Virus record (IMG/VR): IMGVR_UViG_3300025141_012107
Length of the DNA stretch: 55,682 bases
Strand: one strand, 5' to 3'
Source of the DNA: an uncultured virus (IMG/VR IMGVR_UViG_3300025141_012107)
Taxonomy: Duplodnaviria; Heunggongvirae; Uroviricota; Caudoviricetes
Shown here: piece after piece, positions 1-31,760 of the stretch
Position numbering within the stretch: the stretch's first letter is position 1
Layout: every line of letters begins with the position of its first letter
Notes under the pieces: generated by a model
The model's input: only the letters and a program-made list of their open reading frames with translations
What the model was told of the DNA's origin: nothing
Databases searched by the model: none
Translations under genes and position numbers: made by a program

Positions 1-223
1 ACAGGTTGACGATGAACAGTTCCTTATGGTCACGGATCTCGCCATTGTCAGCATACCATGCGCCCAAACGAACGTAGAACAACGGATCTTGAGCAATCAT
101 CTGTTCATGAACAGGATGACTTGCGCTCAGATTTCTGTGGGGAGTCATCAACAGCGTATTCAGCATCCCCAAACGAAGATCCTGTTCACTGGACGTATCA
201 ACTTGTGCAGTTCGTACAGCCAT
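1..223 (-). CDS. N-terminal part (runs off the window) of a probable TROVE/Ro60-like (ROT)-vWA family protein
   Basis: Hand translation MAVRTAQVDTSSEQDLRLGMLNTLLMTPHRNLSASHPVHEQMIAQDPLFYVRLGAWYADNGEIRDHKELFIVNL, with AAGGAG RBS. It resembles the N-terminus (E.DLRL.MLN.LL.TPHR, DP.FY, G..RDHKE) I recall for cyanobacterial/planctomycete TROVE-like vWA proteins. Not in the ORF track because it is truncated. Confidence 0.6.
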   Translation of the reverse strand, partial: MAVRTAQVDTSSEQDLRLGMLNTLLMTPHRNLSASHPVHEQMIAQDPLFYVRLGAWYADNGEIRDHKELFIVNL

Positions 224-273: not shown

Positions 274-483
274 TTAACCGAATACAGCCTGCGGACGAAG
301 AGTCATGTCACCGGTTTCTGCGTTGCGGTCAACAACGAAACCATTCATCTTGGTGAGAGGAGCACTGAAGTGATTAGCTACAGCCTGCTTGACGTCTTGG
401 TCGGTAGAGAGATCGCCCACATCGATATCCTCGAAGAGAAGATCGAACGATTCTCCATTGTATCTGACGTGAAGTACTGACAT
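274..483 (-). CDS. Small ubiquitin-like (beta-grasp) protein ending in AVFG
   Basis: 69 aa; LHVRYNGESFDL start and LRPQAVFG C-terminal Gly; AAGGAG RBS. Confidence 0.6.
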   Translation of the reverse strand: MSVLHVRYNGESFDLLFEDIDVGDLSTDQDVKQAVANHFSAPLTKMNGFVVDRNAETGDMTLRPQAVFG

Positions 484-528: not shown

Positions 529-660
529 AGCCTTGTCTAAGTTTCAGGACGGTTTCTTGGGTAACGTGCAAGATTTGAACTTGCGACCTTCACTTCCTAA
601 TAGTGACGCTCAACCTACTGAGCTAACGTTTGTAACGTCCAAATTGTTGGAGACAAGGCT
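529..660 (-). ncRNA. Y-RNA-like RNA A: tRNA-like domain nested inside the conserved module
   Basis: 10-bp terminal stem AGCCUUGUCU/AGACAAGGCU followed by a U-run; inner stem GGACG/CGUCC; UACAAAC; D arm GCUC-AGUAGGUU-GAGC; anticodon-like arm UCACU-AUUAGGA-AGUGA; T arm GCAAG-UUCAAAU-CUUGC. Confidence 0.75.
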
Positions 661-663
661 AAG

Positions 664-798
664 TGGGAGAGGTAGGAGTCGAACCTACGAGTCTTGCGTT
701 TTCAGGGCAATGCTTTACCAAAAGTTTGTAAGCTACATCCCATTGGAGACGGACAAGCCGTCTAAGTCAGAATAGCTATAGCACTAAGCTACTCTCCC
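664..798 (-). ncRNA. tRNA-Phe(GAA)-like RNA B with about 60-nt structured D-loop insertion
   Basis: Acceptor GGGAGAG/CUCUCCC-A; T arm GUAGG-UUCGACU-CCUAC; anticodon loop CUGAAAA (closing pair is a C-C mismatch); D-loop holds ACUUAGACGG-CUUGU-CCGUCUCCAA...UACAAAC. Confidence 0.8.
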
Positions 799-823: not shown

Positions 824-894
824 AACGTCCAAGTTCAGGCAGCGGTCAAAGCATTCCGAAGATTGGTTTGTATGCTGTCCTTGTTGGGGACGTC
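824..894 (-). ncRNA. Minimal module-only RNA C (no tRNA domain)
   Basis: GACGUCC-CCAA...CAGC-AUACAAAC...GCUG...AACUU-GGACGUU. Confidence 0.7.
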
Positions 895-908
895 AACTTA
901 ATTTCAAG

Positions 909-1100: not shown

Positions 1101-1142
1101 ATATAGTTTTCAAAGAACTCTTTGAAAAGTCAAGAAGAAACA

Positions 1143-1287
1143 GGCGTCCAAGTTCGAGCAGCGGTATGACATTAGTCACAGATCTTAAATCTGTTGCCTT
1201 ATCCACTTGGCTATACGTTCATGTTGGTGAACATAGTGGGATTCGAACCCACGTTGTTGTTTGTACGCTACGCCAGTAGGGGACGCC
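1143..1287 (-). ncRNA. YrlA-like RNA E: circularly permuted tRNA-Leu(UAA)-like domain inside the conserved module
   Basis: 5'->3' order: GGCGUCC-CCUA, GUAGC, UACAAAC, T arm (GUGGG-UUCGAAU-CCCAC), acceptor UAUGUUCA/UGAACGUA closed by loop CCAACA, D arm, anticodon arm (UAA), GCUGC, AACUU-GGACGCC. Confidence 0.8.
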
Positions 1288-1418
1288 GGTTTCTTCTTCA
1301 CTTGTCAAAGTCGAGCCTTACGACTCTGCCCTATCTTATCAGCTTCCCAGCCACTTTCAAGGGCAATATTCAACTTATCGGCTTTTTCTTGAAATTCCTT
1401 TAATGAATTCCGCAAAGC

Positions 1419-1727
1419 TCAGTTTTTCTTACCTCTCGCAGCTTCAGAGGGCATCTTACCATATCTTTTATGGCTGTCAACCCCTAAATCATCGTCGTCA
1501 AAATCATCTCCGTCATCCCAAACTTCTCCGTTCTCATCTTTGTAACGCTCGTCTTTCATCCAAGTTATCACAACAGGATCTTCGCCTCGATAAAACTTTT
1601 CCTGATGCTGCCCGTCATGATCCTGGGGGAGAGGACATCGGACGGTAGCAACCCCATCGCCAAAGTCGTCTCCGATATAAAGGTGAGCATTACATTCGCC
1701 TTCAACATCTTCTGGTTTTCCAAACAT
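1419..1727 (-). CDS. Hypothetical protein (CxLxxxHxGxH motif, acidic tail)
   Basis: ORF with TAGGAG RBS. Confidence 0.6.
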   Translation of the reverse strand: MFGKPEDVEGECNAHLYIGDDFGDGVATVRCPLPQDHDGQHQEKFYRGEDPVVITWMKDERYKDENGEVWDDGDDFDDDDLGVDSHKRYGKMPSEAARGKKN

Positions 1728-1746
1728 TCGTTTCTCCTAAGTTAAG

Positions 1747-1828
1747 TGCGGAAGGAGGGACTTGAACCCTCAAGCCTTACGGCACTGGATTTTAAATCCA
1801 GCGTGTTTGCCAATTTCACCACTCCCGC
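1747..1828 (-). tRNA. tRNA-Leu(TAA)
   Basis: Full cloverleaf with long variable arm; loop TTTAAAA. Confidence 0.95.
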
Positions 1829-3337: not shown

Positions 3338-3421
3338 TGCACCGGGTTGGATTCGAACCAACGTAGACTTTCGCCAACAGTTTGACAGACTGCTGCAACT
3401 CTCCAACTTTGCCGCACGCTC
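3338..3421 (-). pseudogene. Chimeric/pseudo tRNA with GTC (Asp) anticodon on a Tyr-like class II body
   Basis: D, anticodon, variable and T arms intact; acceptor strands GAGCGTG/CCGGTGC mostly unpaired. Confidence 0.6.
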
Positions 3422-8448: not shown

Positions 8449-8454
8449 GATAAA

Positions 8455-8656
8455 GACGTTTGGCTCCGTAAGCAGGATTCTGTTCTATGTCGTCATTTCT
8501 CTATTGGCCCTCTACCCGCCATCATAGTCATGCTCACCAACTCCGGCTGCTTGAGGTTGCTATCTCTGTGGTCCAAGCGGCGTTAGCCTCCCACATTAGA
8601 GCACTATAGTCCTGACTTTCCTCTGCGAATTGCAGCGACGACTCGAACCAAACGTC
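8455..8656 (-). ncRNA. rnpB: Miniature RNase P RNA (catalytic domain, reduced S-domain)
   Basis: P1 GACGUUUGGUUC/GAGCCAAACGUC; P2 GUCGUC/GACGAC; CR-I GAGGAAAGUC; P4 AAG(U)CAGGA/UCCUGCUU; CR-IV AGAGAAAUGAC; CR-V AACAGAAUCCUGCUUA; L15-like GGGUA. Confidence 0.9.
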
Positions 8657-29521: not shown

Positions 29522-29594
29522 TCAGACTGACAGGATTTGAACCTGCGACTTCTGCGCCCGAACGCAGTGCTCTACCAAACTGAGCTACAGTCTG
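29522..29594 (-). tRNA. tRNA-Pro(CGG) with 6-nt anticodon loop
   Basis: CTGCG-TTCGGG-CGCAG; rest of the cloverleaf is canonical. Confidence 0.75.
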
Positions 29595-30305: not shown

Positions 30306-30374
30306 GGGAAGCGTCCTACCACTAGACGACGGAGGCCGAAGCCTCCGGCAGGATTCGAACCTGCGTTTCTTCCC
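30306..30374 (-). ncRNA. Circularly permuted tRNA mimic without an anticodon loop
   Basis: GGGAAG-AAAC-T arm (GCAGG-UUCGAAU-CCUGC)-CGGAGGC-UUCG-GCCUCCG-UC-D arm (GUCU-AGUGGUA-GGAC)-G-CUUCCC. Confidence 0.85.
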
Positions 30375-31677: not shown

Positions 31678-31686
31678 TCAAAAAAG

Positions 31687-31760
31687 TCAGAGTGAGAGGA
31701 TTCGAACCTCCGACCTCTGCGTCCCTAACGCAGCGTTCTGCCAAACTGAACTACACTCTG
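31687..31760 (-). tRNA. tRNA-Pro(AGG)
   Basis: Intact cloverleaf; loop TTAGGGA. Confidence 0.9.

Follow-up and report, generated by a model that had tools for sequence, protein, structure and literature searches.

A circularly permuted, four-arm tRNA-like RNA upstream of a divergent Ro60-like gene in a tRNA-rich phage

The first of five handle-bearing RNAs in a large tRNA-rich phage contains a complete tRNA mimic, circularly permuted and opened at the variable region, and lies upstream of a gene for a divergent Ro60-like protein. The DNA analysed here (hereafter the window) is the whole 55,682-nucleotide record IMGVR_UViG_3300025141_012107 of IMG/VR, from an uncultured virus of the Caudoviricetes; the RNA in question, called RNA E, is on its minus strand from 1287 to 1143. 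From 5' to 3' it is made up of one strand of the handle, a T arm, a 7-bp acceptor stem closed by A73-CCA-ACAU, a D arm, an anticodon arm with UAA as anticodon, a 3-bp hairpin and the other strand of the handle (Table 1). On balance, we lean towards considering RNA E as a Y-RNA-type partner of the divergent Ro60, that is, a full tRNA mimic displayed as bait, decoy or sensor, probably opened by RNase P and probably non-decoding. A role as decoy seems more likely than that of a working leucine tRNA.

A sequence-only reading of this stretch had proposed a permuted tRNA-Leu-like domain at this position without naming a strand, and the anatomy that it described is correct. The minimum free energy of RNA E is -49.8 kcal/mol (z -4.3), a value equalled by none of 200 shuffles, all of the 35 proposed pairs have probabilities between 0.77 and 1.0, and ARAGORN, when run on the sequence un-permuted by rejoining it in silico, calls a tRNA-Leu(taa) with a 7-bp acceptor, A73 and CCA for most choices of the junction. 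The order T arm, acceptor, D arm, anticodon arm and short hairpin is therefore borne out, and so are the retention of the anticodon arm, with a 5-bp stem and a 7-nt loop, and the in-register position of CCA after the discriminator. The loop that had been given as CCAACA exists if A73 pairs with U-1; otherwise the loop is formed by A73-CCA followed by a 4-nt linker. RNA E also has G18G19, U8:A14, A35, a canonical T loop, the contacts between D and T loops and an intact elbow. The opposite strand of 1143-1287 folds well too, but it has no tRNA motifs and this reading was rejected.

Tandem tRNA genes can imitate such a permutation when the T arm of one gene is read together with the D arm of the next. 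When the 55.7-kb minus strand was dinucleotide-shuffled 100 times, a descriptor of the four-arm permuted form gave four hits; in the real window it returned RNA E and three junctions of tandem tRNA genes, which are devoid of CCA. While the artefact accounts for these three hits, for two of the seven loci in one scan of viral contigs and, in another that gave 16 loci, for most of the 11 classed as non-E, it was rejected for RNA E because neither a D arm nor an anticodon arm is found upstream of its T arm. The stretch is not an assembly artefact either, since it is reproduced by contigs of independent DNA runs: those of two public runs span the CCA loop with no difference, and the contig of a third run reaches position 1245. 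In the one RNA run searched, the only matches at RNA E were of T-arm length and came from other organisms, leaving RNA E uncovered.

Table 1. RNA E, its parts and its surroundings, in positions of the window.
Feature	Position	Strand	Basis or remark
RNA E: handle-bounded, circularly permuted four-arm tRNA-like RNA	1143..1287	-	fold, ARAGORN, pair probabilities
Handle helix P1 of RNA E	1287-1281/1149-1143	-	fold
Handle helix P2 of RNA E	1270-1266/1163-1159	-	fold
5' strand of conserved handle (GUCC-CC...UAGCG-UACAAAC), putative Ro60-like binding site	1259..1287	-	
3' strand of handle (CGCUG...AACUUGGACGCC)	1143..1163	-	
T arm, canonical UUCGAAU loop, C48 just upstream	1236..1252	-	
7-bp acceptor stem and closing loop	1214..1235	-	3' strand 1235-1229; 5' strand 1220-1214
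A73; CCA; 4-nt linker ending in U-1	1228; 1227-1225; 1224-1221 (U-1 at 1221)	-	
Predicted RNase P site	between 1221 and 1220	-	cleavage predicted
D arm (G15, G18G19, U20a)	1196..1211	-	
Anticodon arm, 5 bp and 7-nt loop	1178..1194	-	UAA at 1187-1185
Short variable-arm-like hairpin, 3 bp	1168..1177	-	similar short hairpins in relatives by eye
Extended 30-nt terminal inverted repeat, arms 1120-1149/1281-1310, 90%	1120..1310	-	may be a precursor processing stem
Sigma70-like promoter (10/12, extended -10) upstream of array	1453..1480	-	consensus match only
Sibling RNA: tRNA-Met(CAU)-like body, handle inserted, permuted, in D loop	909..1050	-	by reading; partial tRNA hit
Sibling RNA: minimal handle-only hairpin	824..900	-	
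Sibling RNA: tRNA-Phe(GAA)-like body, handle in D loop, circularly permuted	664..798	-	
Sibling RNA: unpermuted tRNA-Leu(UAG)-like domain nested inside handle	529..660	-	
69-aa Gly-ended small protein, probably ubiquitin-like	274..483	-	Foldseek E 0.07-0.5, weak
514-aa divergent Ro60-like gene, start	1..223	-	continues in L122:12489-14033
Phage mini RNase P RNA	8453..8654	-	72 bits, below gathering score 100
Ordinary type II tRNA-Leu(UAA) of phage	1746..1828	-	tRNA calls

RNA E opens an array that runs from 1287 to 529, upstream of the genes for the 69-aa and 514-aa proteins, and the five RNAs of this array have in common a handle in which GUCYCC..UACAAAC pairs with ACUURGAC. The siblings with Met-like and Phe-like bodies possess normal tRNA ends, and both were missed by ARAGORN. 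The window is part of a larger phage genome, a record of which (G001, 26% complete according to CheckV) is identical to it over the 3301 bases tested. Among its tRNAs (23 calls in the window), a tRNA-Pro on the minus strand at 31686-31760 bears the unusual anticodon AGG, and a similar tRNA at 29522-29594 (minus) has a 6-nt anticodon loop. Two weaker matches are also on the minus strand: 3346-3413 (28 bits to tRNA, GUC anticodon loop, long variable arm, no ARAGORN call) is possibly an irregular tRNA, and 30306-30374 (27 bits to YrlA), situated among tandem tRNA genes, is probably a junction artefact.

The 514-aa gene begins on the same strand about 0.9 kb downstream of RNA E and runs off the window, so its sequence was completed from G001; it is followed by genes for an unknown 311-aa protein, a JAB-like protein and a ThiF-like protein. 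Pfam gave no hit and NCBIfam no call for the 514-aa protein, and a search of G001 with the TROVE profile (PF05731) found nothing. The best PDB matches of its profile are phage Ro60 and Rsr (E 0.007-0.1), the Ro60 of Thermus phage phiLo being the closest at the sequence level with 14% identity, and vWA_Ro60 was matched near the cut-off by all five relatives scanned, two of them above it. Using an AlphaFold model (pLDDT 85, 41 sequences), Foldseek placed Ro60, Rsr and phage Ro60 structures at ranks 1-12 (E 2.4e-12, TM 0.67, 11-14% identity). Judged by its modelled structure, the protein is a divergent Ro60 with the Ro60 fold, and the Ro-type context that the sequence-only reading had assumed holds.

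At least 1920 of the 8000 candidates scored are relatives of this protein. The family occurs in Cyanobacteria, Planctomycetota, Chloroflexota, Acidobacteriota and large phages and is missed by TROVE-based surveys. The genome of the cultured cyanobacterium Acaryochloris marina contains a divergent Ro60-like locus (L201, NC_009925.1:298280-306695) besides the canonical Ro60 of Chen 2014 (PMC4201824). That survey dealt with TROVE-annotated genomes and its Acaryochloris entry is at 2.21 Mb; the locus of the present family is at 0.30 Mb in the same genome, and the family therefore lies outside the survey, at least in this organism. In a Fischerella genome, a CRISPR array is located immediately downstream of the Ro-like gene (L158:6222-8384).

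As for the 69-aa protein, nearly all Foldseek matches of its model are ubiquitin-fold chains, with weak E values of 0.07-0.5, and a ubiquitin fold is probable on that model. Where enough flanking sequence was available, viral loci had its gene in 12 of 15 cases, genomic loci in 65 of 75 and metagenomic loci in 46 of 48; the corresponding counts for the ThiF gene were 6 of 15, 29 of 70 and 17 of 28. All of these are lower bounds because the tblastn queries were the proteins of this phage. Locus searches with single proteins retrieved the phage itself only. Downstream of the Ro-like operon, at L122:166-3413 (+) and L122:6188-6538 (-), inspection by eye points to what we take to be NAD salvage genes, presumably nicotinate phosphoribosyltransferase-like and glutamine-dependent NAD synthetase-like, together with a PanD-like gene.

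RNA E belongs to a family that accompanies these Ro60-like genes. The loci compared were 185, of which 177 came via protein alignment (the best 80 of 177 genomic and the best 80 of 505 metagenomic matches being included) and eight from elsewhere. A descriptor of handle-flanked RNAs with the T-acceptor-D permutation recovered 107 distinct RNAs in 97 of the 185 loci, the window's own copies included, and none in five shuffles of the 177 loci. In most of the 107, any anticodon-like hairpin comes ahead of the T arm, as the "V" stem does in YrlA, and a 5-bp/7-nt hairpin after the D arm was seen in only one of 95 short forms. The four-arm form represented by RNA E (E-type) amounts to 21 RNAs: 12 that built the model R1, one found by the descriptor (L227), five further R1 hits (at least 86 bits, in 100 sources searched) and three forms with much lengthened acceptor stems, which were recognised by eye and lie on the strand opposite to the Ro-like gene (L135:2109-2715, minus). 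There are also 119 distinct examples of unpermuted tRNA-like domains lying inside the handle (loci L124-L299), and their anticodons are very varied. Odd anticodons are found among them (12 CUA, 14 UAG and 6 AUU), and tRNA finders report these domains as real tRNAs, suppressors included.

Within the 12-row alignment of E-type RNAs, 92.5% of the cells pair and both sides change in 31 of 34 pairs, including all five of the anticodon stem and all seven of the acceptor, counts that lean towards structure because the rows were chosen for pairing. RNAalifold, without any guidance, recovers the handle, T, acceptor and anticodon helices, and the handle helices P1 and P2 are covarying. Eighteen of the 21 anticodon loops score as 7 nt, with Y32 in 15, U33 in 15 and R37 in 17; the anticodons themselves are of 11 different kinds. 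Two pattern scans of viral contigs that were blind to genes gave seven true E-type RNAs on six contigs, all of them near a Ro-like gene, six of the seven having been known beforehand from other searches. The first motif scan of viral contigs had yielded mostly chance matches: filtering of 121 loci left two besides the window copy, one of them spurious, and L014 was assessed by direct reading. The form is rare in cells: of the whole genomes searched, none of 401 in one phylum sample had the pattern and one of 401 in another, namely that of L142, which was known before. On a quick tree built from 47 Ro-like proteins, the E-type loci lie dispersed.

The closest known relative in layout is YrlA (RF02553; PMC4201824; bioRxiv 10.1101/312249), with which RNA E shares the T-acceptor-D permutation, the closed acceptor loop, the terminal stem, the presence of several Y RNAs per locus and a position not more than 4 kb upstream of a gene, on the same strand, for a protein of Ro60 fold. 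Two features of the broad Y RNA class are found here, namely an adjacent Ro60-fold gene in the same orientation and a long stem in which the 5' end pairs with the 3' end. The anticodon loop is absent from YrlA, whose handle replaces or continues the anticodon stem (bioRxiv 10.1101/312249), whereas in RNA E an anticodon arm and a variable hairpin follow the D arm and the handle emerges from the variable region; the contrast with YrlA drawn in the sequence-only reading is a real one. The motif GNCGAAN0-1G is absent from RNA E and from the whole of 545-1290 and present in 4 of 106 relatives, the score of RNA E against RF02553 is 19.8 bits for a gathering score of 69 (relatives at eight loci reach 26-40 bits), and the partner protein, unlike that of YrlA, comes from a Ro60-fold family which the TROVE profile misses. 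RNA E is best read as a Y-RNA variant with a YrlA-like layout, outside YrlA by the GNCGAA motif, Rfam score and anticodon loop. What is new is the intact anticodon arm, the variable hairpin, a different handle and a different protein family.

Other systems resemble it in part. Deinococcus radiodurans Yrn1 is a Ro-bound RNA modelled with an anticodon-like arm (PMC4201824), as RNA E would be if it binds Ro; Yrn1, however, is unpermuted, with a 6-nt loop and a doubtful D arm, and is closer to the nested sibling at 529-660. The locus of Thermus phage phiLo likewise combines a phage-encoded Ro60 with upstream Y-like RNAs, Yrl1 and Yrl2, but these contain the CGAA motif, and the word "anticodon" does not appear in the main text of PMC12135203. 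Two-piece tmRNA also comes from a permuted gene, its acceptor loop is opened and it works unligated (PMC3978253); RNA E differs by lacking a tag reading frame, by its anticodon arm and by an A-U instead of G3-U70 at pair 3-70, and a search of RNA E for tmRNA gave no ARAGORN call and only a T-arm match to RF00023 (16 of 47 bits). In the literature searched, which did not extend to subscription journals, bioRxiv supplements and the supplementary figures of Chen 2014, no Y RNA was described that carries this handle or has its anticodon arm placed 3' of the D arm.

The determinants of bacterial RNase P, as listed in PMC10731613, are a 7+5-bp domain, U-1, G+1 and RCCA, all of which RNA E possesses in the form of a 7-bp acceptor and 5-bp T stem, U-1, G+1 and ACCA. 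A two-piece, CCA-ended Y RNA has a precedent in YrlA of M. smegmatis, which also has a 7-bp acceptor stem, there with a 4-nt loop, and is cleaved by RNase P in vivo and in vitro into two pieces, one of them ending in CCA (PMC4201824). That RNA receives its CCA once it has been trimmed and has no anticodon arm behind the D arm, whereas CCA is encoded and four arms are present in RNA E, for which the cleavage is predicted. From these sequence features, opening between U-1 and G1 is rather probable, and on cleavage too the sequence-only reading is probably right; the 8-nt closed loop may hinder docking of RNase P. The two pieces cofold at -50.6 kcal/mol. The phage encodes a 202-nt mini RNase P RNA which has lost most of the specificity domain and kept the L15 GGU, as well as a CCA-type transferase (PF01743).

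Encoded CCA is found in none of the 23 tRNA calls of the window. It is in register in 5 of the 21 E-type RNAs, or in 5 of the 16 with loops of at least 4 nt compared with 1.3% expected; a sixth has CCA one base out of register and the L303 loop is without it. The comparison with non-E relatives (5 of 16 versus 3 of 94, p 0.0015, with the strict descriptor; 4 of 10 versus 5 of 96 with a looser one) weakens to p 0.013 once four missed non-E cases are added, CCA then being enriched in non-E RNAs as well, so that the excess in the E-type depends on the set chosen. The five carriers are scattered on the quick protein tree, where they force five changes. Since five of the 21 E-type RNAs have a 5-6-bp stem with a tetraloop and three have long stems, opening cannot be the essential step of the family.

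One alternative takes the opened RNA further: RNA E would be leucylated and become a chargeable two-piece tRNA-Leu tethered to Ro60, as an amino-acid donor or as a stored, releasable tRNA. We consider this unlikely, and leucylation as such doubtful. A73, the elbow and A35 are in its favour, and both anticodon and variable arm are dispensable for E. coli LeuRS (PMC9976931). In-register CCA also coincides with leucine anticodons (3 of 4 versus 0 of 14, p 0.005, a count that omits L246, whose 9-nt loop reads as AAG too), and mini RNase P RNA was found in two of ten virus records searched (the other at G002:C1:34143-34368), precisely those in which the E-type RNA carries CCA in register or shifted by one base, although two of the other eight are without a known E-type RNA and several are incomplete. 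Yet A15-U48 and A20a, which belong to the leucine determinants of E. coli (PMC9976931), are present in all four true tRNA-Leu of the window and replaced by G15-C48 and U20a in RNA E. The other four CCA carriers have G73 (three), an antideterminant for LeuRS (PMC9976931), or U73 (one), the AAG anticodons are odd in coming with A33 or a 6-bp stem, and 16 of the 21 E-type RNAs have no in-register CCA. In an isotype test, the best matches of the body were nested tRNA-like domains of the same family, and the "Leu" of RNA E therefore rests on its anticodon and A73; a Tyr- or Gln-derived body was not supported by this test. With an ordinary tRNA-Leu(UAA) only 460 bases away in the same phage, RNA E is unnecessary for decoding UUA, and its use in decoding is less likely still than leucylation because tight protein binding at the variable arm sequesters engineered tRNAs (PMC7590224). 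Considering also the 11 different anticodons of the relatives, the chargeable tRNA-Leu proposed in the sequence-only reading must be graded as weak.

Alternatively, and with an equally low probability in our opinion, RNA E would stay uncut as a closed-loop, YrlA-like tether, in which the tRNA fold does no more than stabilise the molecule or serve as a dock for PNPase or some other effector that binds the elbow, the anticodon arm and CCA being relics of repeated recruitment of tRNA genes. In most family members the loop is indeed closed and lacks CCA, Ro60 is linked to PNPase by YrlA and by phage Yrl RNAs (PMC4201824, PMC12135203), and the scatter of E-type loci on the protein tree would agree with repeated recruitment. 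However, the anticodon stem is fully covarying and a 7-nt loop with U33 and R37 is kept in RNAs that are only 55-70% identical to RNA E, which indicates selection on the loop, and the ordinary tRNA genes of the phage are without encoded CCA, so a relic derived from them would have none.

A bolder version of the two-piece model appears improbable when taken as a whole: RNA E would be a natural two-piece, four-arm tRNA, matured by the minimal RNase P of the phage, aminoacylated and leashed through its variable region to the divergent Ro60, one member of a set of permuted tRNAs whose handles sit in the D loop, at the D/anticodon junction, in the variable region or at the acceptor end, the set acting as a tRNA tripwire or as amino-acid donor for a ubiquitin-like conjugation system.

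Finally, it is most improbable that RNA E is a permuted tRNA gene which, as happens in algae and archaea, is circularised, released from its handle and processed to a normal one-piece tRNA-Leu: the 3' half does come first, the intervening loop is at the acceptor end, the rejoined sequence is a valid cloverleaf and known permuted genes tend to be Ser, Leu or Tyr, but these are ligated at a BHB motif into one-piece tRNAs, with junctions at 20/21, 37/38, 50/51 or 59/60 (Soma 2014, PMC3978253), whereas the junction of RNA E is in the variable region and holds a putative protein-binding handle common to its four non-permuted siblings, many relatives have closed 6-bp stems, and RtcB was found in only one of five phage records and not in G001 (26% complete).

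Returning to RNA E as a displayed tRNA mimic, a sequence of events can be proposed. The handle, which comprises both RNA ends, would bind the Ro60-like ring; GNCGAA being absent from it, this binding is argued from linkage and shape. Folding and covariation show that the middle of RNA E is a complete permuted tRNA mimic with its four arms in native geometry and the handle leaving from the variable region. RNase P of the host or of the phage would probably cut between U-1 and G1 and 3' trimming would stop at the encoded CCA, giving a 63-nt and a 78-nt RNA joined by the acceptor stem and the handle, which most likely would not decode. Most likely, RNA E and its four siblings would then present tRNA surfaces, a real anticodon loop included, on the Ro ring to enzymes that attack tRNA, for which they would be bait, decoy or sensor, because the shape of the anticodon loop is kept while its identity turns over and because the 119 nested domains have such varied anticodons. 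Anticodon nucleases are common anti-phage effectors. In the most speculative step, a guess from gene order, the adjacent genes for ubiquitin-like, JAB and ThiF proteins may form a response arm.

The role of the tRNA-like domain in bacterial Y RNAs, and whether it is ever aminoacylated, was left open in the work on YrlA (PMC4201824; bioRxiv 10.1101/312249). RNA E is a near-ideal molecule for this question, being a Y-like RNA that has four arms, encodes its CCA and presents a textbook RNase P site, in a phage which supplies its own RNase P RNA and CCA-type enzyme, and its natural relatives, which vary in arms, CCA and features of the RNase P site, can serve as controls. Beyond this molecule, RNA E points to a large Ro60 family that TROVE-based surveys have not seen, and among the RNAs of this family tRNA occurs in several circularly permuted arrangements, a fact of relevance to the origin of Y RNAs from tRNA and to the conflict between phages and their hosts over tRNA.
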